This document shows positions 9,151-61,725 of a stretch of DNA of 64,000 nt, one piece after another. The position numbers and the translations under genes are program-made. The notes below the pieces were generated by a model that did not search any database, was not told the origin of the DNA, and saw only the letters and a program-made list of their open reading frames with translations. Within the stretch, counting starts at the first letter, position 1, and each line of letters begins with the position of its first letter. The DNA comes from Candidatus Woesearchaeota archaeon (lineage in GTDB: Archaea > Nanobdellota > Nanobdellia > Woesearchaeales > DSVV01): assembly GCA_038884615.1 (NCBI GenBank), contig JAWABL010000004.1, positions 4,479-68,478 of the forward strand. Direction: 5' to 3'.

Positions 9151-10470
9151 CTAGTTTATACTGCAACATACCTTTTTGTCGTATTCTGAGTTGCAATCTC
9201 CAATATAAGCGTCTGTTTGCTCTCCAACATCGTTTCCAAAACTGAAAAGACATCCTTCATTTCCGCTGCAACCACCAGCACTTCCGCTCTTAACACTACA
9301 AGTCGTGTCTCCTATGTTGGTATCTAAGCAAAGCCGTATGCTATAAAATGGAGTAGTATCATCATATCTTGCAATCTTGCTGTTGTTCCATGAAGACAGT
9401 TCAATTATGCCTGCAGACGACCCAGATATGTCCATGCACCTTTCCGAATCGCTTATATTGAAAACCTCCAAAACATCGAGTGTTCTTGACCTGCAGCAAA
9501 GAGTCCATTTGTAATCACTATAATTTGTTGTCTGGACAACTGCCTTATCATGCCCTCTGGTGCTGTTCTCCAGCCTTAAAATCGGTATCTCTTTTGTAAT
9601 GTCATTACATTCTGAGCTGTAGTTTATCATCCTGCAGACAATATCCCCTCTATAGTCCAAAAGGCCGTCACAATCATTGTCAATTCCATCATTGTCTATA
9701 GTTTCGCTTATCTCATAATCTGCTGATACAGATGGCTCATTGCCACCATTTATAGGGCTATCATCACCGCAGCACGCGTTTTGTCCAAAATATCCTGTCC
9801 AGTTATAGCCACTCGCAAGGCAAAGATAAATGCATGAATCGTTGTCGGTGTAAATCTCGTCGGTCTCTCCGTCGCAGTCGTCATCAAGAGCGTTGCAGTC
9901 TTCAGGCCTTGGCAGTATCTCATTTACGCAAACACTTTTATCCCCAAGACTGCACCTCAAGTTGCCTTCTTTACAGACACCTTGCAGGGTGTTTTCATCG
10001 CTATGGCACGATTCCTCAACACATGTATAATCTAGTCCTGTGCTTAGAATTATTACGCCGTAATCCTTTACTATATATATCAAGCCGCCACCAATATTGC
10101 TTTTATTTATCATGTCAACAAGCAAAACATCTGATTTAAAGGATACGCTTGTTATGCCTACAGGCGTTGAAATATTGAATACAAGCTCATTTCCAGCTCC
10201 TTTTGGAACATATATGCTCTCAACAGAGTCAGGCGTCTTAAAATTTAATTTTCTTAAAGTGTAACCCCCAGTTGAGTAAGCCATCTCTGCAACATCAATT
10301 ATCTCGTTGCCTATTTTCTTTACCTCTATAGTCTCAACATCGCTTACCGTCCTTTTGTGAAAATAATAGTATCCTACTAGCGCACCTATGAGTGCGAGAA
10401 AAACAAGGGTTATTGTTAATAAATATTCAAGACTCTGCTGCCCGTTTTTTCTTATGCCACCCTTTTTCAT
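9151..10470 (-). CDS. Type IV pilin-like protein with a large Cys-rich C-terminal domain carrying MopE-like metal-binding motifs
   Basis: The N-terminus MKKGGIRKNGQQSLEYLLTITLVFLALIGALVGYYYF matches the archaeal class III signal/pilin consensus (K-G-Q...E-Y-L plus a hydrophobic helix). The C-terminus has more than 35 Cys and two copies of C-x-x-x-DDDCDGETDE and DNDCDGLLDY. Confidence 0.6.
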   Translation of the reverse strand: MKKGGIRKNGQQSLEYLLTITLVFLALIGALVGYYYFHKRTVSDVETIEVKKIGNEIIDVAEMAYSTGGYTLRKLNFKTPDSVESIYVPKGAGNELVFNISTPVGITSVSFKSDVLLVDMINKSNIGGGLIYIVKDYGVIILSTGLDYTCVEESCHSDENTLQGVCKEGNLRCSLGDKSVCVNEILPRPEDCNALDDDCDGETDEIYTDNDSCIYLCLASGYNWTGYFGQNACCGDDSPINGGNEPSVSADYEISETIDNDGIDNDCDGLLDYRGDIVCRMINYSSECNDITKEIPILRLENSTRGHDKAVVQTTNYSDYKWTLCCRSRTLDVLEVFNISDSERCMDISGSSAGIIELSSWNNSKIARYDDTTPFYSIRLCLDTNIGDTTCSVKSGSAGGCSGNEGCLFSFGNDVGEQTDAYIGDCNSEYDKKVCCSIN

Positions 10471-10560
10471 ATTTTCAGCACATAATTTTTTTCAGCAAAT
10501 ATACTCTCTAAACTATATCATCTGCTCAGTAGTATTTATAAATATTTTTCTTTTATCTTG

Positions 10561-10725
10561 GGCACCCTTCAAAATCTCGTTTTCGGTCGGTTTAACATCA
10601 TGTTGGCACTTTTCCATTCAAATCAAAATATCTGGTTCTCCGTATGGAACAACTCACTTCAAACCCATATATTGTTCCTGAATGTACATACGCGGTAGAT
10701 GCTAACACACTTTTTGAACGCAGCC
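10561..10725 (+). repeat. MITE-like repeat element, copy 1 (about 165 bp, imperfect terminal inverted repeats GGCnnCGTTCAAAA)
   Basis: About 93% identical to 24649-24813. It is the reverse complement of 59895-60059 and 61726-61889. It is non-coding and intergenic between the pilin and T2SSF genes. Confidence 0.8.
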
Positions 10726-10783
10726 GTATTTAAAAAACTAAATCTAAATATCAACACAGATAAGTATTAGTGTTGGTTATACA

Positions 10784-12376
10784 TTATGAAAAGATGCTTC
10801 CAAACAGCATTCCCATTATTTTTGACGCAAGAAAAAATATAATCATTGTTGCCAAAATAAATATTGGGAGATAGTGTAGCCCTTCTTTCACATCGCCTTT
10901 TCTTATTGTTGTAACAATGATACCAGAAAATAGGGAAGAAACTCCAAGACATGCGTAGATAAATATTCTATAGTCTTCAGGTTTGATATTATCGCTAGAT
11001 ATATTTATTGATATCATTCCCCCTCTTGGCATTGAACCCGCTGAACTTACGCCAGTGGCTATCTTCTGTACAATTAAAAGAAGCTGTTCTGATAGGGCAA
11101 AAAGTACTGGTGCGGCTATTATAGAGGCGAATGTTATGAAAATCGCATAGGTCATTACATTCGCGCTCATCTCTTTTTTCATCGCTCGTAGTTCGCTTAT
11201 GTTTATTGCAATCTTGTTAAGAAGTTCGCCCACATCTCCGCCAGACTCAGTGCCTTCAATTAAAAGGGTTATTGAGCGCTCAAGTATTGTAGAATCATAT
11301 CTTTTTGAAAAATCAATAAGTGCCTTGTTAAGGTCTTCGCCGCTGAGAGTCCTTTTTGCAACATCTTCTATTTCCTTTGCAAGAACACCAAATTTTGGCC
11401 TTACAGCAAACCAAAGTGCTCGGTCAATGGACATGCCCGCCCTTATGTTTGCAGATGTAAGCTGAAGAAAATCTGGCAGTACTTCTTCAATCATAAGCTT
11501 TCTTTGGTACATCCTAATATCAATATAAATCATAAAAGACAGCCAGATAACTACCCATATAAGGAAGAATCCAAGAGTCCCTAATAGTAGAATCATTAAA
11601 GCAATATGACTTAGCGAGTCGTCATGTGAAGCTAGCCTTATGATTACAAAGAGAGTTGCAATTGCTGTAATTACGCCTGAGACTGTAAGAATTATTTTTG
11701 GTACCTTTGCGGGCTCAAGCTCAAGCCCTGCCTTCTCCATGTGCTCAACAAGCCGCCTTTTTCTTGCAGGAGCTGTCAGCTTCTTCCTTGTCTCCTCTGT
11801 TTGTTTTCTGAATACTTTAGCAATTTCAATCCTTTCTTCCTTTTTTGCGTTGTTTAGGCCATCTTTCTGTTTGTTTGAAATCTTAAATCTACTTTTGACA
11901 TGATTTATGGCATTGAGCAGGAGAGACCCTTTTGATTTTTCTACTACATCTTCAGATTTTTTAGCAGATGGTGTATTCTCCTCTTGATTATCTACTACTT
12001 TTTCAGCCTTTTTTTCAAATGTTTCTTTTTGCTGTTCCTCTTTTTTCTCTTTAGAACTCTCTTTTAGTTTACCAAGCAAATTTCTATATAAACTCCAAGT
12101 AAACCCGGCCTTCTTTGTACTTTTTTCATCATTTTTTGCGACATTTGAAAGACTTTCTCCCATGCTTTCTCTGCGACTAACTTTAGAAACATCTAACTTA
12201 GACTCCTGTGTTTTCTTTGTTATTTCTGTTTTTTTTCTATTCATTCCAGCAGCATTAGTTTTCATATTACTGCTGACTTTTTTTTCTCTTTTATCGCCTT
12301 TCGTTCTCTTTCCTGTACTAACTGCCTTTCCTTTATATAGCATTCCATATGCGCTTTTGATATTTTTTTTAGCCAT
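10784..12376 (-). CDS. T2SSF-domain membrane protein (TadC/FlaJ-like) with a lysine-rich disordered N-terminal extension of about 230 aa
   Basis: The C-terminal half has a GspF/TadB/FlaJ-type domain (LPDFLQLTSANIRAGMSIDRALWFA...LLIEGTESGGDVGELLNKIA) flanked by TM helices. The N-terminal 230 aa are low-complexity K/E/S-rich. Confidence 0.7.
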   Translation of the reverse strand: MAKKNIKSAYGMLYKGKAVSTGKRTKGDKREKKVSSNMKTNAAGMNRKKTEITKKTQESKLDVSKVSRRESMGESLSNVAKNDEKSTKKAGFTWSLYRNLLGKLKESSKEKKEEQQKETFEKKAEKVVDNQEENTPSAKKSEDVVEKSKGSLLLNAINHVKSRFKISNKQKDGLNNAKKEERIEIAKVFRKQTEETRKKLTAPARKRRLVEHMEKAGLELEPAKVPKIILTVSGVITAIATLFVIIRLASHDDSLSHIALMILLLGTLGFFLIWVVIWLSFMIYIDIRMYQRKLMIEEVLPDFLQLTSANIRAGMSIDRALWFAVRPKFGVLAKEIEDVAKRTLSGEDLNKALIDFSKRYDSTILERSITLLIEGTESGGDVGELLNKIAINISELRAMKKEMSANVMTYAIFITFASIIAAPVLFALSEQLLLIVQKIATGVSSAGSMPRGGMISINISSDNIKPEDYRIFIYACLGVSSLFSGIIVTTIRKGDVKEGLHYLPIFILATMIIFFLASKIMGMLFGSIFS

Positions 12377-12507
12377 TATCTCTCTTTTTTTGTTTATTTT
12401 AATTTTTTCCTCTATTTTTATTGAGTGTATAAAATATATAATTCCTAAAATAATTCCTAGATTCTTGCTGTTATACTTATGTTACACACCCGTTATGCAT
12501 ATATTAA

Positions 12508-13335
12508 TTATAATTCTACTGACGGCCTTGAGCTCTTGATTATTGCGTAAAACATGAATTGTATAAAACCAAGCATTCCTGCAACCATCAATAAAAAAAC
12601 AAGGGAAAGCTTAAATCCTATGAAACTTGAGAAAATTATTAGCATTGTTGTTCCGAGTGAGGGAAGGATTACTGCTATCAGCATATAAAACATAGCCAGC
12701 GGATTAAGCTTTCTGCCATATTCCTCAACTTCAATTTTTTGCTCTCTTACAATCTGCTCAAGCACAGATGAAAGTGCAGTTGTTACATCTGCGCCTGTTT
12801 TTATAGAGTTAAGAATTTGCCAGAATATTTTTCTTAAGTTGTTGGATGGCACAATCTCAGTTGCCTCTGTTATTGCATCGTCCATAGATGTCCCTAGATT
12901 AACCTTCTCTACAATGGCACCATAGTATCTTCCTACTGCAGGATACGCCTTTGCTACATTAACAAACGCGTTGTATATGGGCACTCCTGATTCAATCTCT
13001 ATTATGATAAATCTAGTAGCAAAAACAATCTCTTTGTTTATGGCCTTTTCACGGCGTTTGATTTTTATATCGGGCACTCTCATCATATAAAAGAACATTA
13101 TTGCAACAGCTATGGGAAAGAGGACAAGGGTTATTTCTATGGGGACTCCAAATCCCTTTAGGATGCCTCCAAGAAAAAGCACAACAACCCCAAATGAAAG
13201 CATGAGAGAGATGATTAAAGTTTTTCTTACAAATTCTTCAGGTGAGTCAAGAATTTCTGCCTGGACAAGCTTGAGCTTTAAGCCAGGGTAGAAATCGCTT
13301 ATTTTATGAAAGATAAAATGTACAATGTTAATCAC
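12508..13335 (-). CDS. T2SSF-domain membrane protein (TadB/FlaJ-like, second half-size paralog)
   Basis: 275 aa with TM helices at both ends and a central cytoplasmic T2SSF-like domain (NKEIVFATRFIIIEIESGVPIYNAFVNVAK...). It lies directly adjacent to the ATPase gene. Confidence 0.7.
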   Translation of the reverse strand: MINIVHFIFHKISDFYPGLKLKLVQAEILDSPEEFVRKTLIISLMLSFGVVVLFLGGILKGFGVPIEITLVLFPIAVAIMFFYMMRVPDIKIKRREKAINKEIVFATRFIIIEIESGVPIYNAFVNVAKAYPAVGRYYGAIVEKVNLGTSMDDAITEATEIVPSNNLRKIFWQILNSIKTGADVTTALSSVLEQIVREQKIEVEEYGRKLNPLAMFYMLIAVILPSLGTTMLIIFSSFIGFKLSLVFLLMVAGMLGFIQFMFYAIIKSSRPSVEL

Positions 13336-15144
13336 CTAAGCAAGCTTTTTATTTGCTCTTACATACTTCAATAGATTTTCATAGTTTGTGTAGTACTCTG
13401 CCATTACTCTGCCTACTCCATCAACTGTATCTATGTTATTTCTAACAAGGTAGTTGAGCACCTCCTCCTTTGTCTTAAGAATGTTTTGTATCTCTTTTGG
13501 CGAATGCCCTGTAAAAAGCTGGAGTGTCTGCATAAGCGCCTTGCTTTCCTTTACTTTTTTAAGTTTATCTTCCTTTGGGTCGTACTGCATTATAACATTA
13601 ACTGATGCGTCAGGTAAAATTTCGGCTATCTGGAATGTTCTTCTAAGGCCAGTTCTCCTGTTTCTAAACTGAACAATTATAAGAGAAATTGCAGGCATCA
13701 TGCTTTTTGGAACCTCAATAGGGGGGTTAGTCAGCCTGTTTACGGTCTCCTCAGCTGTGTTTGCGTGGAATGTTGCATAGCAGCTGTGCCCAGTATGTAT
13801 TGCCTCAAAAAGAGTTTCAGCCTCTCTCTTCCTTCTTACCTCGCCTACAAGTATTCTATCTGGCCTCATTCTAAGGCTATTTACAAGAAGGTCTTCCATT
13901 GTTACTTCTCCTTTCCCTTCGGTGTTTGGAAGCCTTGTATTCATAGGGACCCAATGCAAAAACTTAGGTAGCCTTATTTCTCTTGTATCCTCTATAGATA
14001 TTATTCGTTGGTTGGGGGGGAAGAAGCTTGCAAGCACATTAAGCGCGCTTGTTTTTCCGCTTGCAGTTCCTCCAGCTATTATCGCAGAAAGCTCATACTG
14101 CATGCAAAGCCAGATAAGTGCAGCCGCTTCTGTGCTGATTGTATTGTGCTGCAAAAACTTTGTTATTGTAAATGGGTCTCTTGAAAACTTTCTTATCGTA
14201 ATTGTATTGCCTCTTGTTGATATAGGCATGATTGTAGCATTGACCCTGTCACCCTCTGAGAGATGGGCGTCTAGCAACGGCTCAAGTATGCTAATCTGTC
14301 TCCCTACCCTGCGGCCTATCATTGCTGCATAGTGCTTTGTCTGGTCGTCATTTGGCATGAATATATTTGACTTTAGCCAGCCGTGTTTCTTATGGTATAC
14401 CCAAACCGGTTCCTCAACGCTGTTTATTACTATCTCCTCAAGAGCAACATCATGCATTAATATGTCAATATTTCCCATTCCAAGACTCTTTTGTATAAGA
14501 TATGTTGTTAGATACCCCTTGGTCTCATCGTCGACATCAGGGAAATACTTTTTAACAAGAATTGCTATCGTTTCCTTGAACTTTTCTTCTACAATCCCTG
14601 TTTCCTTTGGGTTTATTATCTCAACCATTCCAAGGGTTACTTCCTTAATCAGCTTTTTTCTTATTTGCTCAAGTATCATCTCAGTAGTCTTGCTGATGCT
14701 TGCGATTGAGACCTCATATATAGGCACAAACTCTCCTTCTTTTGTATATACTCTTATTGTTATCGGCATATTATCGCAGTTAAAATGGTATTCGTCAAGA
14801 AGCCGTATTATTCTATCAGAATTCTCATCAAGTCTTTCCTGTTTATCAAACGCACTATGCTGATAATTTTTTTTGTTTAATTTCTTTTTATCTTTGGCAG
14901 TCCCCTGCTTTTCTTGTAAGGCATCACCACTTTTTGTTTGAGATGCGTCTCCTTCCAGATGCTCTTTTACCTCTTCCTTCACTGCGCCTAGTTTGCCTGC
15001 TTCCTTTTTGCTGGAAGTTTGTGTAGATACGCCGCTAGTCAACTCCTGCGAGTCTCTCCTTTTTTTCTCTTTCGTTTTTTTTGTTTCTGGACTCCAAACT
15101 AATTTTGATTTGCCATGTCCCCCTCTTTTTTTAACCATCTTCAA
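13336..15144 (-). CDS. Type II/IV secretion-system ATPase (FlaI/PilB/VirB11 family) with a basic disordered N-terminal extension of about 110 aa
   Basis: Walker A (AGGTASGKTSALN), an Asp box / Walker B (IISIEDTREI), a His box (AIHTGHSCYATFHA) and the VirB11/GspE core (RMRPDRILVGEVRRKREAE). The N-terminus is K-rich low complexity. Confidence 0.85.
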   Translation of the reverse strand: MKMVKKRGGHGKSKLVWSPETKKTKEKKRRDSQELTSGVSTQTSSKKEAGKLGAVKEEVKEHLEGDASQTKSGDALQEKQGTAKDKKKLNKKNYQHSAFDKQERLDENSDRIIRLLDEYHFNCDNMPITIRVYTKEGEFVPIYEVSIASISKTTEMILEQIRKKLIKEVTLGMVEIINPKETGIVEEKFKETIAILVKKYFPDVDDETKGYLTTYLIQKSLGMGNIDILMHDVALEEIVINSVEEPVWVYHKKHGWLKSNIFMPNDDQTKHYAAMIGRRVGRQISILEPLLDAHLSEGDRVNATIMPISTRGNTITIRKFSRDPFTITKFLQHNTISTEAAALIWLCMQYELSAIIAGGTASGKTSALNVLASFFPPNQRIISIEDTREIRLPKFLHWVPMNTRLPNTEGKGEVTMEDLLVNSLRMRPDRILVGEVRRKREAETLFEAIHTGHSCYATFHANTAEETVNRLTNPPIEVPKSMMPAISLIIVQFRNRRTGLRRTFQIAEILPDASVNVIMQYDPKEDKLKKVKESKALMQTLQLFTGHSPKEIQNILKTKEEVLNYLVRNNIDTVDGVGRVMAEYYTNYENLLKYVRANKKLA

Positions 15145-16295
15145 TCCTTTACAAGACTTAACAGTTTTTTGAGCTTGTTATGGAAGCTTTCTCTTTTTTT
15201 GTCTACCTCTACAAACTTTTTCTCAAGCTCTGAAATATGCTTTTTGACATCTGCGCTGTTTGATGCTAGATTGAATGCGGTAGCTTTCTTGATAAGATTG
15301 TTAAGCTCTTCGCGAAGGCTTATCCTTAGGGCATCGGTTTCTTCAAGGATTTTCTCAACCTCGTTCTTCCTGCTGAAGAAGGCTTCAAATTTCTTTGCCG
15401 CAGACTTTGCGTCCTGGGGAACATTTTGCATGCTTTTCTTTTTTTCCAGGACTTTTGCAAGCACATCTTGCTGCAAGGAGAGTATCTTTTTTTCACCCAT
15501 CTTGCTCTGCTCAATCAGAGGTTCTAGCTTTTTCTTTTCTTCAAGTATTCTGCTTTTTATTTTTTCAGCTGACTTTTCAAGAGCCTTTATATGCTCTTCA
15601 GTTATCTCTATTTTCTTGTCTTCTTGGTAGATGCTTTCGCGTATCTTTTTTATTATGTCTGAGAACTCGTCTAGCTTTTTAAGAAGCCCTGCTTCTTGTT
15701 CCTTAAGGCCCAACGACTGCGATTTTTCTTCTGCAAGCTTAACTCTTTCAAGCTCTATGTCATCAACAAGTTCCTGATATTTTGATTTTTCCTTTAAAAG
15801 CTCTTTCTCTAGCTCTTGTATCTTGTTTTTGAATGCTGCCTGTTGCTCAAGCAGCTGTTTGTCTATATTTTTCTTGAGTCGTTCGTAGTTTTCAAGCTCG
15901 GCGAGTTCCTGTTTTACGGAGTCTATATCGCTGCCTAGCTCCTTCTTAATGGCGGCGAACTCCTTTTTCAGGTTTTCAAGCCCTTCACATTCTCTGTCAA
16001 GCGTGGTTATTGCACTCTCTACCTTCCTTATAAACGCTTCCTTTGAGCTGTGGTATTCCTTCTCCTTTTTTGTTATCTCCTTTTTTGAAAGCTTTCTCTC
16101 AACAAGATAAGTTGTTGCGAGCTTGTACTCAAGGCTTATAATACCTTCCTCCTCAAGAAAATCCGCCCATTCATCAATAACTGCAGGAGAAACCCCCAGA
16201 ATCTTGGCAGCCTCGCTAGTAGATATTCTCGTTTTCTCATTTACCAGCTTAACAAGTTTGTCAACTCCTGTTTCAATAATTCCTCCTTTAACCAT
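15141..16295 (-). CDS. HTH-domain plus long coiled-coil protein encoded within the pilus operon
   Basis: The first ~70 aa (TRISTSEAAKILGVSPAVIDEWADFLEEEGIISLEY) look like a winged-HTH. The next ~300 aa are heptad-rich with E/K/L, consistent with coiled coil. There is a 4-nt overlap with the ATPase gene start. Confidence 0.5.
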   Translation of the reverse strand: MVKGGIIETGVDKLVKLVNEKTRISTSEAAKILGVSPAVIDEWADFLEEEGIISLEYKLATTYLVERKLSKKEITKKEKEYHSSKEAFIRKVESAITTLDRECEGLENLKKEFAAIKKELGSDIDSVKQELAELENYERLKKNIDKQLLEQQAAFKNKIQELEKELLKEKSKYQELVDDIELERVKLAEEKSQSLGLKEQEAGLLKKLDEFSDIIKKIRESIYQEDKKIEITEEHIKALEKSAEKIKSRILEEKKKLEPLIEQSKMGEKKILSLQQDVLAKVLEKKKSMQNVPQDAKSAAKKFEAFFSRKNEVEKILEETDALRISLREELNNLIKKATAFNLASNSADVKKHISELEKKFVEVDKKRESFHNKLKKLLSLVKD

Positions 16296-16391
16296 AAAGG
16301 CGACTTTAAACCTTCTTTCTTTAAAAATGTTTCTATGCGTTATATCTCTATGCTATATCTGCTGCTCTTTGCTATTATATCTCCTACGCAC

Positions 16392-17330
16392 TCACTCAAT
16401 GAGTTCTTCAACCTCATACCTTGCAAGATGTCCACTCTCGTTGTCCAGCCTAAACCAGTTGTATGTGTTTTTTATAAGATAGTGTTCTGGGCTTTCCTTG
16501 CTGAAATATATATAATCTATACAAGACTTGTTTAGTGTGTTTATATCATTTGCCTCGAGCTCAATAAGGTTTACAAGGCTTTCAATGCCGTACGGAGAGC
16601 TATTTAGGTCTCCTTTTAGCCTCATAAGATAACTCGGTGCACTTTGTGAGTCTATATATAATGAATTGTCAAGATGGTATAGAAGGTTTGTTGTGTCGTT
16701 ATTTGGTCCGACAAAATCGGTTATGCTGCTTTTTTCAATTGTATTTATCACTCTTCCAAATGTATTTACAGTGTATAGTGGGTCTTCAAACCCCACTATA
16801 CTGAGCGATGTGTTTATTCTCTTGTTTCGTGACCAGTAGGCAAGTCCGTTTCTGTCCTGTATATACTCTGTAACATCTAGCGATATTGTTAGTGTCCAAG
16901 GATCAGAATGGCTTATACTTATGTCATTAAGCGTGTAGTTGAAATATATCCCTGTCTTTACAGCCTCAACCCTTATTCTTTCAACCCATATACTTAGCTG
17001 TGTATCATTCATAACACTCATGTATTCGCCGTTTATTGTTCCGTTTATTATAATCTCCTCAATAACATCATCTGTGTCATAAAGGAACTCGCCTTTTGAT
17101 GTTATATACTGCTGGATTGCTAGCAGAGACCTAAATGACGCGATATAAACACCCCTCTCAATGTCCTTTTCTAGGTCATCAACAAAATGGTCTAGCGTTG
17201 TAACTCTGCTGTCAATTACAATTGCTTTGTCTCTTAAGCGCGTCTGATAATCTAGCGAGATGTACAAAAAGAGTAGAACTAAAAATACCATCGCTGTTAA
17301 TGTAAAGAAAAACCCTTTTTTCACTGCCAT
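16392..17330 (-). CDS. Pilin-like protein (class III signal peptide MAVKKGFFF-hydrophobic)
   Basis: The N-terminus MAVKKGFFFTLTAMVFLVLLFLYISL is nearly identical to the N-terminus of the giant downstream protein. The mature part is rich in N-x-S/T sequons. It overlaps the next gene by 10 nt. Confidence 0.5.
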   Translation of the reverse strand: MAVKKGFFFTLTAMVFLVLLFLYISLDYQTRLRDKAIVIDSRVTTLDHFVDDLEKDIERGVYIASFRSLLAIQQYITSKGEFLYDTDDVIEEIIINGTINGEYMSVMNDTQLSIWVERIRVEAVKTGIYFNYTLNDISISHSDPWTLTISLDVTEYIQDRNGLAYWSRNKRINTSLSIVGFEDPLYTVNTFGRVINTIEKSSITDFVGPNNDTTNLLYHLDNSLYIDSQSAPSYLMRLKGDLNSSPYGIESLVNLIELEANDINTLNKSCIDYIYFSKESPEHYLIKNTYNWFRLDNESGHLARYEVEELIE

Positions 17331-20300
17331 ACCCTCACCTCAACAATGGTTGGTCCCCAGAGGTAGGGTATATCCCTTACTACCTTAGCGTCAATGACTG
17401 CATCTTCCTCATGGAAATTTATAAACACTCTACCATCGTTATTGTAGTCAAGATGTGTAAGAAGCAGATGCATTGCTACATCATAACTATCGTCGGAGTC
17501 ATATCCGGATGAATCATGAGACGAGTTTGTATAAAAGCACTTCTTACTACCTGAATAACTGCTTGGGACACTGACGTTTGTGAGGGTTAAGTCTTCAAGC
17601 TCTATTGTCCAGTTGCAGCCCTCAGCCTTGTATTTTACTTCGCTGTATGGCAAAGTGAAGTTTACAACATTTATAAGCCCAGTATATAGGAATGTGTTGT
17701 TTACAGAGCAGTTGCTTGTATTTGTTGGCTCGTCACCCACATTTATTTTTATAGTGTTGGTTTCTCCTCTTACAATATATGAGGTGCTAAATGGGATAGC
17801 GAATGGGTCTCCCATATAACTATAGTCTGTGCTGAAACGGCTGAGGTTATAGAAAACAAAAGTTCCCATAGAGTTATTTATTGTAAGCAAGTCTGTCCAA
17901 TGCGTACCAGAGTATGATGTAACCGCAGCTTCAATAGGTCTTACCTGACTTGGAATAAAAACACTAAAAGTGCAATTCTCCGGATTTTTGTATTCAAAGA
18001 ATATAGGAACCTCTCCATATTGAACAGGCTGTGTATATGGGGTATAATTAAGCATTATGTAAGAGTCAGGGTACAGGTAGCTCTTCTCAAAATTACCCAC
18101 TATTGTTATAATTTGCTGGACTTTATATGAAAAGCTGTTGCTTAGCTTCTCGGCTATCTCGCTGTATATTAGAGAAAGTCCGCTTGGGTTGTCGCTTTCA
18201 TAGTAGTGTGTATTGTTTGTGGAATTATATTCTGGATCGCACAGCGCCGTTAGGTTAAGCGTTTTCCTGCCGCCGGTGCCTACAGAACCAAATGCTACTG
18301 TATAAATAGAAAGATTGTATTTTTTTTGATAGTAGCATGTAATGTTTATAAGCTGTTCTGCGGCGTCTTCGTCTCCGTCAGAGAATTCAGCCTGGTCGAT
18401 TTCAGGCAGGTCTGGGCATGGCACGCTAAGCTGGCCTATTGCGTCAGGACAGCATCCTGAACCAGCGCAGTTGTCGCAGCCATTGTCAACCATCCCTCCG
18501 TCATCAACGCAGACATTTGCCTCGCCATCGCTCATTAAAACCAGCGCTTTCTGCCTTTTTGTTGCGTTTGCATAAAGCCCGACTTGCAGTTTGCCATTGC
18601 TATCTGAGTTGTACAGCTTAATGCCCATGATGTTTTCGCCTTCATTTAGGAGCGCCTTGCTTATCTGTGTCACCCTGTTGTCTACATGCCCAGTATAGGA
18701 GTCTACAAGGTTTCCGTTTATATAGACATCAGCTCCATCGTCTGATGTTATATTAATATATACATTTTCATCAATTCCAGTTGCATCAAGGACAAAAAAT
18801 TTATTTCTATAAAATGTGTTATTACTAGTGTTTGTAAATACAAGCTGGATGTTGTCAAATGAAAACGAGCCTATCTCGCTTGACGAATCTCTTCTCAGTT
18901 TTCCGCCGATTGCAAGGTAATAGTATCCTTCACCTGTAATCCACTCTGTTATATCCTGGACAAAATGTCCGCTATGCTCATAGTCCGGGTCATCAGCAGA
19001 CCATATTTCTTCGCCGGCGTCACCGTCATCTGAAGACATTTCAGTACCAAGGTAGTGTTTGCTTCCTGTTCTGTTCATAAAAAAGCCTTTAACCCATACC
19101 TCATCAGAAGTTTCAAACACGCTGGAGCTTCCGTCGTCAGCAGCGTCCCATCTGTAGTTGAATGACAACAGCGCTTTTCCACCGTTGCTGTTCATCATGT
19201 CTATCATTTCGGGGGTTATGTTAATCTGTATGCCCCATGCGCCCGAGTTTGAGCCAGAACCTGAGCCGTTTACAACAAATTCAAGGTTTCCTGTCGCGTT
19301 ATAGTAAAAATCAGTATAATTACCATTATAGCCAAAAACACCCCCCTGCCAGTCCCAGCCATCGTCTGTGCTTTCTATTGAAGGAGTGTAGTTTATAGTT
19401 ACACCTATATCATCAAACGCAACCACCGTCCTGCTTGTTCCATTGCTTACGACTGCGCCACATAGGAGGTTATAGCTGAATGTATCGGATGTAATAAGGT
19501 TTGTTATATCTATAATCTCTTCCTTTGGTCTTTCTGTGTTGTTGTTTGCCGACCAGTTTACAGACCATACCTCTGTTTCTCCGATAGGGGAAGTAATGTT
19601 GCAAAAAAGGTATGCAGTTCCATTAAAGTAAAGGTCATTTGTGCTGTGCCTAAGTGTTAAAGATACATTATTTGGCGAAGATGTTGGGCTTGTGAATGTT
19701 TGGTTTACATATCCTATTCCGCCAACCCATGAGTCTACAATAAAATAGTCGGTCATTCCAAACACATTTGTGCTTACATTGATATAGTCAAAATCTGCGC
19801 CATAATTTCCATCGTCCATAGCCCATGCATAGACAGCGACGGTTCCATTGGCTAATGTGTTGTCATTTGCTTGTGCGATGAGCGTTGAACCCCTATAAAT
19901 TTTAATATTAGTCCCGGTAACCTCAATAATCATGTTATTCCAGTTATCAGTACTGAAACCGGATGATGAACCTTCGTTTGACCATAGTATAGTTCTTGTT
20001 CCGCTGTGTATCCTCTCAAGCCTGGAAAATAGTCCGCCGAAGTTGTCGTTGTCAATTCTGAATCTATAGTAGTTCTGGTTATCATTATACCTAAATAGCA
20101 GTCCTATGCAGTCGTTGTCGTTAGGTCTTATTCTTGCATTCACAGTATAGTCTTTCCAGTTGAATCCATTTCTGTAGTAAGCATATGGACCGTAACCGTC
20201 GTCCCTTGAGCCTGGTGCAGAGTTTGTTGATTCTACAAGATAATTGTTAAATATTTGCCAGTTTCCTCCGTTTGGAACCTCCATCCAGTTGCTCCCTATA

Positions 20301-22228
20301 TTATCATTGTTTGGCCTGTTGAAATTATCATACATAAACTCCGCTATTCTAGAGCTCTCTGTTGCGACAGAGCCAGTAGACTGCCAGCTGTTAAGACTCG
20401 GTCCTGTAAAGTTCATGTTTTTGATTGGCATTATTGTAATAGCAGTTGGAAGTCCGAAAGTGTTTCCCTTAGAATATATGCCTGAATTGAAATCAACTGG
20501 TGCAATTTTATCGGATGGGTGAGGCCAGAGATACGCCTGAATAGTGTTACCAGCGTAGTAGTCTGCAGGAAAGCCTATACCAAACTTTAGTGTTCCTTCC
20601 TGCCAGAGGCTATCGTCATAGTCAACAGCAGTCCATCCGGGAGGTTCTGATACCTGAAACTCACTTGTATATCTCCACTTATTGTGCAATAGGTCAGTCA
20701 CATTGTTGCCCATAAGTATATTGACTCCTTGATAGACCCCGCATGAAATACAAGTTCCTCCGTTCGCATAATATTGCTTAATCTGGTCTAAAATAAGTGT
20801 GCTGTTTTTTGTTAAACTTAATATATCTCTAATGCCTGAATAATAACTTACAAGCCCTATCCTGTTTCCAGATGTGTTTACAACAATCTGCCTATTAAAA
20901 TCATCAAGTATGCATTTTAGCAAGCTCAGCCTTTGTGTGCTGTTAAGTTTTAGTAGAGGGTCTTTGCAAAACCTTTCAACCCCTGTATTTGTATCGTCAA
21001 ACCTCCAATTCATGCTTCCGCTTACATCGTTCACTACTACAACGTCTCCATTTCCTCTATCACTTATAGTTCTTACAAAAGAAAGGTTTTCAAACCCAAG
21101 CCTCACAGGGACTGTCTGGTTGCTGATTGCTTTATAATCAATCAAGCTACTAAGGTTGCTGTTATTAATATATACACTAATAGTTGTATTGGAGTAGTTG
21201 TCTGAGTAGATCAGCGTATTCCCTATAAGAAGTGAAAGTGTGCTGTTTGAGTTGTTTGAATGGTTTGCAAAATAATGAAGGTATACCTCCATGCTGTTCA
21301 GATCGCCTGGGATGTCAATAGCAGAATAAAAATTTATAATTCCTGAAATTCCAGAGAAAAGGAACACTTCTGAGTCAATATCTTTATAATATATTTGTTT
21401 GGTGTAATAGTCAATCCTTATGAACCCTCCGGCGACATATGCAGATTCTATCTCTTCTGGAAATACGAGTGTAAACTCTGTAGTTATGTCCTTGTTTATA
21501 AGGTTCTTGCATGATGTTATGTCAAAAGCGTCGGCCTCCATATTTCTCCCGCTGACTACGAAATCTCCGCAATGTGTTCCATTAATATAAAGGCTAAAAT
21601 TATTTCCCGCGGAAATCTCCATATAAACCTTTGTTATATTGGCATCGCTTGGGGTTTGCTGTATAATCTTTGTAATGTTTCCTTGTCCTTCAAACCCTCC
21701 AAAATATGCATAAATAGACCTTGCAAGTTGCTCCTCACCTCCTGTAAGAAATATTCTTGCAGAGGTTCCCTTTATTGGTCTTGATTTTTGTATTCCTGTT
21801 ATCATGCTTTTATAGACTGCAAGGTCCTTTTGTCTAGAAATATTTCTAGAATACATAGTTTGATTGCCGTAAATGGCCATCATTCCGTAAGTCCTTGGCA
21901 CAAGTTGAGCAGTAATGTTTTGTATAAGCACCTCTGCAATTTCTGTATTGTTTTTTGCCCATAGTATGCCAATTTCTTCTATAACTGTATTATCATACTC
22001 CGTTTCAGGGATGGTTCCATTGAATATAAGCTCTTTTAGGATAGGATTGTCAAACTCTATTACCTTGGTTGTTGAGAGGATACGGATTATATCCATCGGT
22101 GCGTAGTTTATCTGTGCGGTCGGCTGCTTATACGCGTAGATGGCGGAAAACAGAAGGAACCCTCCTCCTATGAGCATAAGAGCAAGAAGTGCATCAGTGC
22201 TGAAGAAAAATCCCCTTTTCACCGCCAT
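17321..22228 (-). CDS. Giant (1635 aa) pilin-like surface adhesin with VWA and LamG/concanavalin-like domains, heavily sequon-decorated
   Basis: The N-terminus MAVKRGFFFSTDALLALMLIGGGFLLF is class-III-signal-like. A VWA MIDAS motif is present (VVVVNDVSGSM ... and a second KALVLMSDGEANVC). A LamG-like segment is present (CIGLLFRYNDNQNYYRFRIDNDNFGG). More than 100 N-x-S/T sequons are visible by eye. Confidence 0.6.
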   Translation of the reverse strand: MAVKRGFFFSTDALLALMLIGGGFLLFSAIYAYKQPTAQINYAPMDIIRILSTTKVIEFDNPILKELIFNGTIPETEYDNTVIEEIGILWAKNNTEIAEVLIQNITAQLVPRTYGMMAIYGNQTMYSRNISRQKDLAVYKSMITGIQKSRPIKGTSARIFLTGGEEQLARSIYAYFGGFEGQGNITKIIQQTPSDANITKVYMEISAGNNFSLYINGTHCGDFVVSGRNMEADAFDITSCKNLINKDITTEFTLVFPEEIESAYVAGGFIRIDYYTKQIYYKDIDSEVFLFSGISGIINFYSAIDIPGDLNSMEVYLHYFANHSNNSNSTLSLLIGNTLIYSDNYSNTTISVYINNSNLSSLIDYKAISNQTVPVRLGFENLSFVRTISDRGNGDVVVVNDVSGSMNWRFDDTNTGVERFCKDPLLKLNSTQRLSLLKCILDDFNRQIVVNTSGNRIGLVSYYSGIRDILSLTKNSTLILDQIKQYYANGGTCISCGVYQGVNILMGNNVTDLLHNKWRYTSEFQVSEPPGWTAVDYDDSLWQEGTLKFGIGFPADYYAGNTIQAYLWPHPSDKIAPVDFNSGIYSKGNTFGLPTAITIMPIKNMNFTGPSLNSWQSTGSVATESSRIAEFMYDNFNRPNNDNIGSNWMEVPNGGNWQIFNNYLVESTNSAPGSRDDGYGPYAYYRNGFNWKDYTVNARIRPNDNDCIGLLFRYNDNQNYYRFRIDNDNFGGLFSRLERIHSGTRTILWSNEGSSSGFSTDNWNNMIIEVTGTNIKIYRGSTLIAQANDNTLANGTVAVYAWAMDDGNYGADFDYINVSTNVFGMTDYFIVDSWVGGIGYVNQTFTSPTSSPNNVSLTLRHSTNDLYFNGTAYLFCNITSPIGETEVWSVNWSANNNTERPKEEIIDITNLITSDTFSYNLLCGAVVSNGTSRTVVAFDDIGVTINYTPSIESTDDGWDWQGGVFGYNGNYTDFYYNATGNLEFVVNGSGSGSNSGAWGIQINITPEMIDMMNSNGGKALLSFNYRWDAADDGSSSVFETSDEVWVKGFFMNRTGSKHYLGTEMSSDDGDAGEEIWSADDPDYEHSGHFVQDITEWITGEGYYYLAIGGKLRRDSSSEIGSFSFDNIQLVFTNTSNNTFYRNKFFVLDATGIDENVYINITSDDGADVYINGNLVDSYTGHVDNRVTQISKALLNEGENIMGIKLYNSDSNGKLQVGLYANATKRQKALVLMSDGEANVCVDDGGMVDNGCDNCAGSGCCPDAIGQLSVPCPDLPEIDQAEFSDGDEDAAEQLINITCYYQKKYNLSIYTVAFGSVGTGGRKTLNLTALCDPEYNSTNNTHYYESDNPSGLSLIYSEIAEKLSNSFSYKVQQIITIVGNFEKSYLYPDSYIMLNYTPYTQPVQYGEVPIFFEYKNPENCTFSVFIPSQVRPIEAAVTSYSGTHWTDLLTINNSMGTFVFYNLSRFSTDYSYMGDPFAIPFSTSYIVRGETNTIKINVGDEPTNTSNCSVNNTFLYTGLINVVNFTLPYSEVKYKAEGCNWTIELEDLTLTNVSVPSSYSGSKKCFYTNSSHDSSGYDSDDSYDVAMHLLLTHLDYNNDGRVFINFHEEDAVIDAKVVRDIPYLWGPTIVEVRVWQ

Positions 22229-23340
22229 GCATACACCACCATTATAATTGGTTGACGGTTATACAACATAACTCTCTGAAGGCTTACAAGGCTGCTTGAG
22301 TTTACCTTACTGAAGTCAAGGCTTGCGTTTATCACTACATCATTAAAATGTTGTTCTACTGCCTCCTCAATATAGTCTTGGTATTCTCCGTATTCCCCAG
22401 AGTAGACTGCGTCAAAACTACTGAAATAGTAGACCTGACCTTTGCCGTAAACCCATTTTGCAATCGTGCTAGTCTCTCCAGATTTTGCTATAGTTTCAAA
22501 ATATTGTGTGCGGTTTCCTAGAACTGTGCTGTTGTGGTTATAGGATATTATGTCATTAGGATTAAAGTCCAGATAGTTGTCGCTGCTTACAACAGTAGAA
22601 TTAAATGTACCTAAATCTCCGGCAATATATGTTACATTAAGGAACTGCCCATCTGTTTGGGAAACATTGCCGGACAAAAAAATAAAGTGTCCTGTTCTAA
22701 CATAGTCCTCAATAATAGAGACCTGTGCAGGGCTGAACCTTGGATTTTCTATCAGTGCTGCGTCAAGCGAATTAATATTTGTAACAAGTTCGTCAGGACT
22801 TGTATACGATACAACATTTATCCCTGTCCTTGCCTCAAGAATAGGCATTTTTGTATGCAACAGGCTTGCTGGCATTGCATAATAGCCAAAAAATTTCTCG
22901 TCAGCATTTGTTTTTACCTCAACAGACCAATGCCCTATATAATACTGGCTTCCGATTTTTCTTAATCTTCCATCGGGGCTTTTGAAGAAAACCGCAAAAT
23001 CGCTTCTTGACCCAAAAAGAAACTTGCTTTTGTAGTAACTGCTGTTTGTGAGGTTTGCAAACCTATCTGCTTTTGATTTGTCAAGCACATAATCGCTTTT
23101 AAAAAGCCCTATCCTACGCACAGTGGTGTTAGTCCAGTCTGGTGGGTATCCTTCTGTCATAAGTCCTCCAGAAATAGACCTTGCGTCGTTATAGACCTCC
23201 TCAATCTTTTTGAGTTTTTGTTCTCTTATATTCGGAATAAAGCTGAATATAAACGCCATTGAAATGCTAAATATCACTATTGCAATTATAAAATCCTGGT
23301 ACCATACCTGACCATGCCTCTTTTTTAGCATTTCATGCAC
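22219..23340 (-). CDS. Pilin-like or secreted protein (373 aa)
   Basis: The N-terminus KKRHGQVWYQDFIIAIVIFSISMAFIFSFI is a basic stretch, then G-Q, then a hydrophobic helix, which is class-III-signal-like. It overlaps the giant gene by 10 nt. Confidence 0.45.
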   Translation of the reverse strand: MHEMLKKRHGQVWYQDFIIAIVIFSISMAFIFSFIPNIREQKLKKIEEVYNDARSISGGLMTEGYPPDWTNTTVRRIGLFKSDYVLDKSKADRFANLTNSSYYKSKFLFGSRSDFAVFFKSPDGRLRKIGSQYYIGHWSVEVKTNADEKFFGYYAMPASLLHTKMPILEARTGINVVSYTSPDELVTNINSLDAALIENPRFSPAQVSIIEDYVRTGHFIFLSGNVSQTDGQFLNVTYIAGDLGTFNSTVVSSDNYLDFNPNDIISYNHNSTVLGNRTQYFETIAKSGETSTIAKWVYGKGQVYYFSSFDAVYSGEYGEYQDYIEEAVEQHFNDVVINASLDFSKVNSSSLVSLQRVMLYNRQPIIMVVYAWR

Positions 23341-23419
23341 GCACTTTTACTGGCAATCTTGTTTTTGCTTTAGCACCCTGCGTATGTTTATTATTTTGCA
23401 TCTAACTGATATTTAGGTC

Positions 23420-23809
23420 TTAAATTACATTTATATAAACAATCCCCCCAAGTTTATCTATCTTGTTTGCTCCTTTGGTTATATTTCCGATCACATCAGG
23501 TACTATAAACTCTCTTTGAATGTTGGCCGATGTAATTATTATTGAACTGTTTTTTTGAAGTGTTATATTATAATACACTCCGTCCTTTTCTTCAGGGAGT
23601 ACAAAGATTCTGGTATAGCCATCGTCTACCATTGTGGCGGTGACTATCTCGTTTTGGACAAATTCACCGATATCGTTTATTGCTTCAAGTCTTTTTTGCT
23701 CGTTTACTTGTGATATCTCCTCAAAAATCAACCCTAATATAAAGATAAATAGCATTGTAGTTATTGATATAAGAATTACAAATTCTGTGGAAATCTGTGC
23801 TTTTCGCAA
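23420..23809 (-). CDS. Type IV pilin-like protein (129 aa)
   Basis: MRKAQISTEFVILISITTMLFIFILGLIF matches the archaeal pilin consensus (K-A-Q...E-F-V plus helix). Confidence 0.6.
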   Translation of the reverse strand: MRKAQISTEFVILISITTMLFIFILGLIFEEISQVNEQKRLEAINDIGEFVQNEIVTATMVDDGYTRIFVLPEEKDGVYYNITLQKNSSIIITSANIQREFIVPDVIGNITKGANKIDKLGGIVYINVI

Positions 23810-24000
23810 TACTCCACCTCCGCTATACTCTAAAATAACTTAAAGTTTATTCGGTTTTTAAGGCGTTCTTCTTTAGTATGGTGTTTTTTGTTAGTATTAT
23901 CCTCTTTGTTAGTTTTATTGTCTTTGTTAGCTTTACTATTTTTTGCTTCAACGACCCTTTCTTTAGTCGTCCAAAAAATAAGTAATCCTTTTAACTATGT

Positions 24001-24414
24001 TTAGTCATCTATTATGACGCCAGTGTCTGTAGCAGTTATGGATATATACCTTATACCTGCATGAGGCGATAAACTTCCTGAAAGATTGACTTGGCTTTGC
24101 TGGGTTATATCAGTAGTCTCTCCTTGCCATTTCATCCTAAAAACAAGTTCCTTTTCTGTTATTATAATTGCATCAATATTTTTTGGCATATAAACCTTAA
24201 GTGTTGTTTTTGAGGGCTCACCTAAGTAGTACACCGTTTCTGCCGAGTCAACTATCTTTCTTGCAAGAAGGTGTGCTTGATTAGCATTTACTCTCATCTC
24301 CACTGCACTTTTTTCAGAGCCGTATATAAAAAGAAGCGGTATCAATGCAAGAAGCGCAAATGAAACTATCACTACATATTCAATAGCAAACTGCGACCTA
24401 ACCCCTTTCATCAT
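24001..24414 (-). CDS. Type IV pilin-like protein (137 aa)
   Basis: MMKGVRSQFAIEYVVIVSFALLALIPLLFIYG matches the QxxxEY class III motif. Confidence 0.6.
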   Translation of the reverse strand: MMKGVRSQFAIEYVVIVSFALLALIPLLFIYGSEKSAVEMRVNANQAHLLARKIVDSAETVYYLGEPSKTTLKVYMPKNIDAIIITEKELVFRMKWQGETTDITQQSQVNLSGSLSPHAGIRYISITATDTGVIIDD

Positions 24415-24648: not shown

Positions 24649-24813
24649 GGCTGCGTTCAAAATCTAGTTTTCGGTCGGTTTAACATCATGTTGGTACTTT
24701 TCCGTTTAAATGAAAATATCTGGTTCTCCGTATGGAACAACTCACTTCAAACCCATATATTGTTCCTGAATGTGCATACGCGGTGGATGCTAACACACTT
24801 TTTGAACGGTGCC
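24649..24813 (+). repeat. MITE-like repeat element, copy 2, flanked by a 12-bp direct duplication GATTACTTTAAG (24638-24649 and 24814-24825)
   Basis: It has the same family sequence as copy 1. A perfect 12-bp direct repeat lies immediately on both flanks, consistent with a target-site duplication. Confidence 0.8.
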
Positions 24814-25101
24814 GATTACTTTAAGAAAATTATTTATACTTATTATCTAATTAATAATAGACATGCCTCTTACAAAACCAGGAACCAAATCGCCAGCGGT
24901 CGAGTATGCAATAAAGGAGTACAAAGGCAAGGGTAGATTGCGAAAGGCTGATGCTTCACTGGAAAAAAAGTCAAGCGACACCGTTGAACAAAACAATATA
25001 TCTATTGATGTAGTAAGGATAAAAAAAAGGCCGCTAAGAAGGGCGCTGGATAAAATTAAGAGGTATTTCAAGTAAATATTAATATAATCTACTCTTAAAA
25101 A

Positions 25102-25833
25102 TTGAAGAATGTCAAAATGAAAGCCCAGGTTACGCTCTTTATCTTGATAGGGCTGTTTATATTGTTTGCTTTTGCACTGTCCTTCAGCACTTTGACTGAT
25201 ATTAACAGCCTTAAAGAGCCGTCTTCTGATGCAAAAAAAGCAAGGGCGTTTGTTGAGTCGTGTCTTGCATCATCTCTTAGTGATGGAATAAGTGATGTTG
25301 CACAGCACGGCGGTTATTATGTTGTTCCTGAGCCAAAAACTATTGTGTATCTATTTCATCAGATTCCTTTTTACTTTAAAAATGCAACCTTACATGTTCC
25401 AACAAAAAAGGAGGTTGAAGAGCAGCTTGGGGCGTATGTTTCAGACAGACTTAAATATTGCATAGAGTCCTATAACGGCATTAGCTCGCATGATCTTGCA
25501 GTCAGCATAGCCATTTACGATGATGCGATAAAGGCAACTACTTCTGGCTCAATTGAAATAAGCAATCAAAAGAAAACCACAAGGCTTTCAGGCTTTCAAG
25601 CTCAGAAAAACTCGCAATTTGGAATGGTTTACAATGCAGTTCTTGAGATTCTTGAGATTCAGAAAAGATACCCTACCGAGATATGCTTAACTTGCGCATA
25701 CACAATCGCCACCGAGAAAGGGCTTGCAATTTCGGTTGTTCTTATAGGAAACAAAACAGCACTCTTCACAATCCTTGATAACCAGATTAATCCAACTGTG
25801 AATTATATGTTCCTATATGAGGTTGTAAAATGA
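25102..25833 (+). CDS. Secreted or pilin-like hypothetical protein
   Basis: The internal start MKAQVTLFILIGLFILFAFALSF at 25117 resembles a class III signal. The rest has no recognised motifs. Confidence 0.45.
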   Translation: MKNVKMKAQVTLFILIGLFILFAFALSFSTLTDINSLKEPSSDAKKARAFVESCLASSLSDGISDVAQHGGYYVVPEPKTIVYLFHQIPFYFKNATLHVPTKKEVEEQLGAYVSDRLKYCIESYNGISSHDLAVSIAIYDDAIKATTSGSIEISNQKKTTRLSGFQAQKNSQFGMVYNAVLEILEIQKRYPTEICLTCAYTIATEKGLAISVVLIGNKTALFTILDNQINPTVNYMFLYEVVK

Positions 25834-59830: not shown

Positions 59831-59894
59831 CTTCATCTCTTATCACCTTTTAAACTTTTATAGAAACTTATATAAATAATTTACCTTTTTATTG

Positions 59895-61545: not shown

Positions 61546-61725
61546 TTAATTTATTTCTTTAACTACTTATAACTACTTATATAATTATAGGGTCATTTAT
61601 AGATATCATATAATAAACCCTCCATATTATTAATTCCCTATTTTATTATTGTGTTTATTGTGTTATACATATCATCATGTTATACACTATTTTATACTAT
61701 TTTATGTTATTATACTCTATATTAT

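Follow-up and report, generated by a model that had tools for sequence, protein, structure and literature searches.

The DNA examined here is a stretch of 64,000 nucleotides (nt) from a Candidatus Woesearchaeota archaeon (contig JAWABL010000004.1 of assembly GCA_038884615.1), called the window in the following, in which ten co-directional open reading frames (ORFs) on the minus strand fill positions 9151-24414 (Table 1). These genes very probably represent a conserved type IV pilus (type IV filament) operon of this DPANN archaeon. They encode a hexameric-type assembly ATPase of the T2SSE/VirB11 family, a T2SSF platform made of two polypeptides and six proteins with class-III-type N-termini as filament subunits, among them a modular pilin with a split von Willebrand factor A (VWA) domain. 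The identification is carried by domain content, leader sequences, synteny and conservation of the metal ion-dependent adhesion site (MIDAS) in this VWA domain. Judged by sequence comparison, the locus is a vertically inherited core locus, standard for its group and neither accessory nor mobile, because its ATPase, 100% identical to a protein of a Candidatus Woesearchaeota metagenome-assembled genome, is 65-77% identical to hundreds of proteins of Woesearchaeota, Nanoarchaeota and other DPANN archaea, because the same operon order is found in relatives, and because the upstream flank is shared with its closest relative, L019. For a genome scan, it is ordinary in this lineage and no new system; new are the split-VWA architecture, a winged-helix/coiled-coil subunit that is acidic and cytoplasmic, and the absence of the downstream pilin gene. 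The relatives compared comprised 16 archaeal loci from an ATPase scan of one genome per species, L001-L020 in all, of which L018 lies on a 1.84-Mb contig.

An earlier note on this stretch had described a type IV pilus/Tad-like locus with a split platform, an ATPase, a helix-turn-helix (HTH)/coiled-coil protein, pilin-like proteins and a giant VWA adhesin, and Pfam and NCBIfam domains as well as leaders agree with that description. The arrangement of all genes on one strand was likewise confirmed, in nearly the order given there. As for the proposed overlaps of 4-10 nt between genes, three junctions do overlap (by 10, 10 and 4 nt), but one abuts and the other neighbours are separated by 79-191 nt, or by 313 nt where a copy of a miniature inverted-repeat transposable element (MITE) lies between them. 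The start of the gene for the 312-amino-acid (aa) protein overlaps the adhesin gene by 10 nt, the platform N-half gene abuts the ATPase stop codon, and the 4-nt overlap, between the winged-helix/coiled-coil gene and the ATPase gene, exists only with the TTG start of the latter. Two small upstream pilins were found and not three: the third was sought in the gaps 23810-24000 and 23341-23419 without success, the 191-nt gap between the two small pilins holding no pilin-like ORF. As for the total of six pilin-like genes, the motif and hydrophobicity scan emulating FlaFind, by which class III leaders were called, gave six class-III-type N-termini on the operon strand. No Rfam or tRNA matches were obtained in the window.

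The ATPase matched Pfam T2SSE with 117 bits (cutoff 24.9) and carries the Walker A motif GGTASGKT, a basic and poorly conserved N-terminal tail of ~115 aa and a weak match to PilB3_C at its C-terminus. Among solved structures, A. fulgidus GspE (2OAP, 258 bits) scored above FlaI (194) and CpaF (166), and the NCBIfam model of TadA scored below that of FlaI. Going by these scores and the PilB3_C match rather than by a tree, the ATPase leans to the euryarchaeal 'clade 2' and not to the Epd/Tad clade. Both platform proteins contain one T2SSF domain, at 49.5 bits in the 275-aa and 59.8 bits in the 530-aa protein. The former aligns to positions 55-237 of the 484 positions of UpsF, and the latter to 204-465 of 465 in FlaJ and 275-465 of 484 in UpsF. 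One protein therefore corresponds to the N-half and the other to the C-half, and the platform is truly split. The 530-aa protein also has a Lys-rich cytoplasmic N-terminal extension of ~215 aa with a net charge of +29.

Two known archaeal systems were tried and rejected. As for the archaellum, the NCBIfam FlaI model reached 261.6 bits against a cutoff of 550, the ArlJ models 26-42 bits against cutoffs of 400-550, and no FlaH, FlaG or FlaF domains occur in the locus. As for the Ups/bindosome systems of Sulfolobales, UpsF gave 28-34 bits (cutoff 400) and BasE 150 bits (cutoff 1000). No Aap-like features were visible in the locus. With the archaellum and UpsF models so far below their family cutoffs, the statement that the locus is neither archaellum nor Ups holds.

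In the Woesearchaeota loci L001-L007, the genes for the winged-helix/coiled-coil protein, the ATPase and the two platform halves (N before C) form a module, which Micrarchaeota and Nanohaloarchaeota loci also contain, their coiled-coil protein being shorter; synteny of the ATPase module was conserved over L001-L016. The complete nine-gene order recurred in L007, L018 and L019/L020. In L008 this order was kept too, but no coiled-coil gene could be recognised. Compared with the window, the proteins of L018 and L019 had identities from 39% (second small pilin, L018) to 86% (ATPase, L019). On the upstream, pilin-side flank, an AsnC regulator, a TP_methylase, a HAD hydrolase, an AdoHcyase, a 173-aa protein and a small divergent ORF are common to the window and L019; the other flank of the window encodes an archaeal histone, ribosomal protein S17e and CDC48. 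The downstream end was compared between 9151-10783 of the window, L018:14236-18197 and L019:21153-24902. In the relatives, the platform genes are followed by a highly conserved pilin of 155-156 aa (leader ...AQAAMEFLMTYGWAILVV), a ~560-aa protein and Memo, none of which has a homolog in the window; at the position of the downstream pilin, the window has a MITE and the 439-aa Cys-rich protein. Among the Nanohaloarchaeota loci, L016 (9989-13636) has an ATPase ORF of 1215 aa, in which an unbroken match was limited to query residues 116-365; an intein or a fusion may be the cause. In L011 (11864-19282) the T2SSF match sits in an ORF of 2472 aa.

The MITE is 166 nt long, with 14-nt terminal inverted repeats (GGCTGCGTTCAAAA ... 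TTTTGAACGGTGCC), and is present in four copies in the 64 kb (92-97% alike). Two of them, 93% identical and in direct orientation, flank 13.9 kb of the locus, so that the direct repeats reported around it are real. The earlier note had taken the locus for an accessory and perhaps undescribed adhesive pilus system, and had read the bracketing copies as a sign of mobility or variability. The genes just outside both copies do differ from those of relatives: the 243-/444-aa gene pair lies upstream, and the Cys-rich pilin replaces the 155-aa pilin, the 558-aa protein and Memo downstream. However, we consider such an island extremely unlikely. Given four copies in 64 kb, a pair 14 kb apart is about what is expected from their density alone, and the MITE was absent from all 20 related loci compared, including those with the same operon. 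Both genes that flank the upstream copy, the small divergent 70-aa ORF and small pilin 1, are syntenic with L019; nothing has therefore been rearranged there, and synteny continues past this copy, at odds with a MITE-bounded composite element. No transposase was seen in the window. The housekeeping flanks (histone, S17e, CDC48, AdoHcyase) likewise speak against an island, as does the fact that this type of locus has been published (PMC11291902, PMC6393860). Neither does 'accessory' fit, since the ATPase, which is among the most conserved DPANN proteins, the coiled-coil protein, the adhesin and the 312-aa protein are conserved Woesearchaeota/DPANN families kept in the same operon order in relatives. 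By sequence comparison, what the MITEs mark is thus variation confined to the borders of an operon that is itself fixed, and not a mobile block; both copies at the locus are incidental insertions of a dispersed element.

All six pilin-like proteins of this fixed operon have a single N-terminal hydrophobic segment (residues ~8-35) behind a leader that is short and basic. The residue before the predicted cleavage site (marked ↓ in the following) is G, A or S. Q at +1 and E at +5 occur in the 137-, 129- and 439-aa proteins, two others start with G↓FFF(S/T), and one with G↓QVWYQDF. Small pilin 1 (MMKGVRS↓QFAIEY, Glu at +5), encoded by the first gene of the operon, is a candidate for the major or an abundant pilin; its orthologs at the same position are 51-54% identical in L018/L019 and 43% in L007. 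An oligo-T run and a short hairpin (GACGAC...GTCGTT) are located just past its stop codon, at 23975-24000 on the minus strand. These could attenuate transcription, making the 137-aa pilin the most abundant product. Small pilin 2 (MRKA↓QISTEF, Glu at +5; orthologs 34-43% identical in L007, L018 and L019) is the sole pilin-like protein with a Pfam Class_IIIsignal match, which at 16.5 bits lies below the cutoff.

The four remaining pilin-like proteins are larger. The 373-aa protein (leader MLKKRHG↓QVWYQDF, weak Pfam match to DUF7287 at the N-terminus) probably starts at the ATG at 23331. Compared with its orthologs of 157-176 aa in L007, L008, L016 and L018, it contains an insert of ~200 aa (residues ~138-340), residues 5-137 and 341-373 aligning with the 176-aa ortholog of L018; L019 has the long form as well (363 aa, 40% identity). 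The 312-aa protein (KKG↓FFFTLTAM) is predicted to be a minor pilin and partner of the adhesin. Its family comprises 1137 clusters (50% identity) at E<=1e-3, and has a uniform length of ~300-330 aa, and the protein itself gave no sequence match in Pfam, NCBIfam or PDB; the ortholog adjoins the adhesin gene in L007, L008, L013, L018 and L019. In the Cys-rich 439-aa pilin (KNG↓QQSLEY), residues 5-141 are paralogous to small pilin 1 (BLASTP, 26% identity over 140 residues, E=2e-8), and a Cys-rich extension of ~300 aa with DxDCDG motifs lies beyond this pilin-like part. No family matches were found for it in Pfam or NCBIfam, and a protein of this kind was not conserved at this position in the loci compared.

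The giant 1635-aa protein also starts in pilin fashion (KRG↓FFFSTDALLA), and it carries 58 N-glycosylation sequons. The MIDAS of its VWA domain consists of D401-x-S403-x-S405, T492 and D1234, all of them invariant in 50 homologs. Between T492 and D1234 the domain is split by an all-beta insert of 712 aa (residues 508-1219), and a conserved C-terminal region lies beyond. The VWA_2 profile scored 27.7 bits with the intact protein and 35.4 bits with the two halves spliced, the match then spanning the whole profile (positions 1-106). Exactly residues 508-1219 are lacking from family members of ~900 aa. Homologs of 901-1759 aa were found in Woese-, Pace-, Micr- and Altiarchaeota, all starting with KKG↓(F/Y)(F/Y)F(S/T)xDAL, and some of the longer ones have Laminin_G_3, DUF2341 or MAM domains in the insert region. 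In an AlphaFold2 (AF2) model of residues 380-1345 (predicted local distance difference test score, pLDDT, 79.5), the two VWA halves are seen with the all-beta insert between them. Foldseek related the VWA to the vWF domain of the pilus-tip protein Mfa5, and the insert to carbohydrate-binding jelly rolls, including carbohydrate-binding module (CBM) family CBM66 (template modelling score 0.63 on the target, root-mean-square deviation, rmsd, 3.0 A), CBM22, the C-terminal CBM-like domains of Vip3 and reelin repeats. A PDB sequence search with the insert gave no match. Of the label VWA/LamG (laminin G) that this protein had received, the first half is thus backed by VWA_2; as for the second, no Pfam Laminin_G match was found, and a ConA/LamG-like fold is suggested at the model level only, by the match to CBM66. 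With its pilin-like N-terminus, its VWA with a DxSxS...T...D MIDAS and its beta-rich interruption, the adhesin is a TadG/CpaL-like modular pilin whose VWA is interrupted by lectin-like beta-sandwiches.

Directly upstream of the ATPase gene lies the gene for the winged-helix/coiled-coil protein, in which no transmembrane segment, signal peptide or class III leader was detected. Matches were sub-threshold only, to HTH domains in Pfam and to winged helices in PHROGs, and the family is annotated as hypothetical throughout, without a Pfam domain. The AF2 model (pLDDT 75) has a winged helix of the order H-S-H-H-S-S at residues 10-66, followed by four long helices; by Foldseek, the winged helix aligns with ArsR/MarR-type regulators (rmsd 1.1-2.5 A). 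Family members have a near-constant length of 380-387 aa and are most conserved in their first 70 residues, and at this place in the locus the winged helix is kept in the shorter proteins of Micrarchaeota and Nanohaloarchaeota. Its third helix, at the DNA-recognition position (V-I-x-E-W-A-D-F-L-E-E-E), has a net charge of -4 to -6 in 30 of 30 homologs and, being so strongly acidic, is unlikely to read DNA. The N-terminal tails of the ATPase (net charge +12) and of the platform C-half (see above) are, by contrast, basic. Since it has no export signal and its acidic recognition helix is set against these basic tails, we read the protein as a cytoplasmic structural or adaptor subunit, and we infer a contact with the tails.

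Other roles can be envisaged for this protein. DPANN coiled-coil proteins were reported as structurally resembling reovirus sigma-1 (PMC11291902), which would make them extracellular attachment proteins, and the N-terminal fold shared with ArsR/MarR regulators would befit a classical winged-helix transcription factor of the operon. We regard both as unlikely: the protein has none of the signals for export or membrane insertion listed above, the stop codon of its gene overlaps or abuts the ATPase start, the recognition-position helix is acidic in every homolog, the constant length is the one expected of a structural element, and sigma-1 was not among the top 50 Foldseek matches. The published virus-like attachment reading looks doubtful. 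Instead, we tentatively suggest that this cytoplasmic subunit might belong to a new, DPANN-specific class of type IV filament motor subunit, that is, a ruler or scaffold of fixed length (a coiled coil of ~310 residues) and not a DNA-binding regulator or extracellular attachment protein. As an accessory part of the motor, it may dock with its acidic winged helix on the poly-basic tails of the ATPase or the platform C-half. Part of the same tentative suggestion is that this genome may have swapped the canonical major pilin gene for the Cys-rich modular pilin at a MITE-associated breakpoint.

From these components, the following model of the pilus can be drawn. A prepilin peptidase encoded outside the window would trim the class III leaders. 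On the platform, a priming complex would assemble from the giant VWA protein, the proteins of 373 and 312 aa and at least one of the two small pilins, and this complex would end up at the pilus tip, as do CpaL/TadG and CpaJ/K in Tad pili or PilY1 and minor pilins in type IVa pili. Beneath it, the ATPase would polymerise the major pilin on the heterodimeric platform, the candidate for this pilin being the 137-aa product of the first gene here and, in relatives, the 155-aa pilin encoded just downstream. At the tip, the adhesin would recognise ligands, either glycans or proteins, on a host cell or a surface, in keeping with the episymbiotic lifestyle of DPANN archaea.

Several points weigh against the identification as a pilus operon or against parts of this model. 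In line with the earlier note, profile searches found no class III signal (prepilin) peptidase among the window ORFs of at least 150 aa; in archaeal genomes, this peptidase is commonly encoded away from the pilus locus (PMC4858521). No homolog of the 155-aa major-pilin-like gene that relatives carry after the platform genes was detected in the window, so that the filament subunit is represented here by a candidate. The tip location of the adhesin and its binding to a host are suggested by analogy only, and the AF2 model of the adhesin contains a low-confidence stretch at model residues 169-311. The lack of a canonical major pilin in the window, together with the mostly large size of the class III proteins (312-1635 aa), might also indicate that the machine builds a short pseudopilus or display stalk, comparable to the pseudopilus of type II secretion systems or the Sulfolobus bindosome, serving to expose the Cys-rich pilin and the giant protein with its VWA and lectin-like parts on the surface of the cell. 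In support of such a role, it has been proposed that archaeal type IV filament machines are functionalised by binding proteins with class III signals (bioRxiv 10.64898/2026.04.22.720090). Nevertheless, a pseudopilus is quite unlikely, given that relatives encode the highly conserved 155-171-aa pilin straight after the platform genes, that the first two operon genes are small pilins with Glu at +5, and that the architecture parallels that of pilus tip complexes (PMC11870444). A pilus is therefore the reading that we retain.

The type of locus is already published, as regards split platform genes, DPANN loci with 'dark-matter' pilins and the coiled-coil/CpaF/TadC module. Thus, the word 'undescribed' in the earlier note does not apply to a locus of a type covered by PMC4858521, PMC6668835, PMC6393860, PMC11291902 and bioRxiv 10.64898/2026.04.22.720090. 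The closest description is that of Hamm et al. 2024 (PMC11291902), who reported two conserved coiled-coil/CpaF/TadC loci in cluster-2 DPANN including Woesearchaeota and whose paper also gives their products as detected by proteomics in Ca. Nanohaloarchaeum antarcticus. The taxon range is alike, as is the coiled-coil gene next to the ATPase and TadC-type platform genes. The corresponding gene order (coiled-coil, ATPase, TadC(N), TadC(C)) was found in the window, L001-L007, L018 and L019, a match by description and not by sequence. That description mentions neither the winged helix and cytoplasmic location of the coiled-coil protein nor the split-VWA adhesin nor the complete nine-gene order, and this genome differs from the cluster-2 loci in lacking the downstream 155-aa pilin and in having MITE insertions. 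Pilins recognisable by their signal peptides only, the 'dark matter' type also seen here, were described in DPANN pilus islands by Makarova et al. 2019 (PMC6393860). A 2026 preprint (bioRxiv 10.64898/2026.04.22.720090) likewise lists DPANN loci of System 1 and subsystem 4A in which two platform proteins are accompanied by a PilY-like adhesin.

Two platform genes are typical of archaeal clade 1, many clade 2 and 4B systems (PMC4858521) and were explained as a gene fission common to Epd-like and Tad systems (PMC6668835). Like clade 1 (the Epd pilus of Methanococcus maripaludis) and clade 2 (pili of PilB3/PilB4 type), the locus has two adjoining platform genes with one T2SSF domain each, five or more class-III proteins of minor-pilin type and a large protein that is a candidate tip adhesin (PMC4858521; bioRxiv 10.64898/2026.04.22.720090). 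Clade 1 adhesins carry DUF2341, as do some relatives of the window adhesin, and the weak PilB3_C match recalls clade 2. The locus departs from Epd loci in that EppA and Epd-type major pilins of ~70 aa are absent from the whole window and FleN/MinD or FlaH-like ATPases from the locus, and in its winged-helix/coiled-coil gene, which published Epd loci do not include. In a comparison by NCBIfam models and solved structures, the ATPase is closer by score to afGspE and FlaI than to CpaF/TadA, which speaks against the Epd/Tad clade.

Bacterial Tad systems (PMC11870444, PMC6668835) resemble the locus in having a platform of two single-T2SSF proteins and a giant protein of CpaL layout, CpaL itself consisting of a pilin module and a vWA split by a beta-rich insert (PMC11870444). 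However, Tad loci have TadB (C-half-like) before TadC (N-half-like), whereas the order here is ATPase, N-half, C-half; a secretin, TadZ and a Flp-type pilin are missing here, and further differences are the archaeal host with its class III signals and an insert in the VWA of the adhesin that is lectin-like and four times larger than in CpaL. Modular pilins are predicted to sit at the pilus tip, as represented by PilB (vWA) and PilC (ConA-like lectin) of Streptococcus sanguinis (PMC8179133). There, too, an effector module is grafted onto a pilin module, with adhesion predicted at the tip, but the 1635-aa protein combines both module types, with the lectin-like domains inside the VWA, and has no sequence similarity to PilB or PilC.

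The neighbouring genes can be described briefly. The small basic 70-aa ORF divergent from the operon has no Pfam match and may be a local regulator. The two overlapping genes beyond it (243 and 444 aa), inserted relative to L019, gave no Pfam or PHROG matches and no homologs in L001-L020; they are lineage-specific, and it is uncertain whether they belong to the pilus system. The leader of the 444-aa product is more Sec-like (SVSA↓EE), and the pair adjoins the upstream MITE. At 34832-37076 (plus strand), 10 kb from the pilus locus, a MoxR-type AAA ATPase gene overlaps a gene for a cytoplasmic VWA-domain protein; such MoxR/VWA pairs are among the candidate regulators tied to some archaeal pilus loci (Makarova et al. 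2016). An ORF of at least 984 aa that runs off the window start (1-2952, minus strand) has a Sec-like leader (MTKKSISLFLILVLVV) and no Pfam match, and probably encodes another surface protein. Finally, in a 456-aa ORF at 46069-47439 (minus strand), an MtrA-like domain is joined to a C-terminus that partly resembles thymidylate synthase; this ORF is located directly upstream of a full ThyA gene and a DHFR gene.

Table 1. Genes of the pilus locus, MITE copies and adjacent genes, with their positions in the window
Feature	Position	Strand	Basis or remark
Small pilin 1 (137 aa)	24001..24414	-	class-III-type N-terminus
Small pilin 2 (129 aa)	23420..23809	-	motif scan
Pilin-like protein, 373 aa	22219..23340	-	class-III-type leader
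Giant modular pilin/adhesin, 1635 aa	17321..22228	-	pilin-type N-terminus, VWA_2
Conserved pilin-like protein, 312 aa	16392..17330	-	leader, family conservation
Winged-helix + coiled-coil protein, 384 aa	15141..16295	-	AF2/Foldseek
Assembly ATPase, 602 aa from TTG or 600 aa from ATG at 15138	13336..15144	-	Pfam T2SSE
Platform protein, N-half of FlaJ/TadC, 275 aa	12508..13335	-	Pfam T2SSF
Platform protein, C-half of FlaJ/TadC, 530 aa	10784..12376	-	Pfam T2SSF
Cys-rich modular pilin, 439 aa	9151..10470	-	paralogous to small pilin 1
MITE copy, between platform C-half gene and Cys-rich pilin gene	10561..10726	+
MITE copy, in divergent promoter region upstream of operon	24649..24814	+
MITE copy	59894..60059	-
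MITE copy	61725..61890	-
Small basic ORF, 70 aa, divergent from operon	24863..25075	+	tblastn with the 64-aa protein of L019: 39% identity, E=6e-11
Two overlapping genes (243 aa, 444 aa) with hydrophobic N-terminal leaders, class-III-like or Sec-like	25102..27164	+	inserted relative to L019

A life in attachment to host cells is assumed for DPANN archaea, the mechanism of which is largely unknown. The pilus operon described here is probably the main attachment organelle of these archaea, and the variable lectin-like insert of its adhesin could determine host range. The tip adhesin, the conserved 312-aa partner protein and the cytoplasmic coiled-coil subunit are offered as the parts of the system on which this can be tested.

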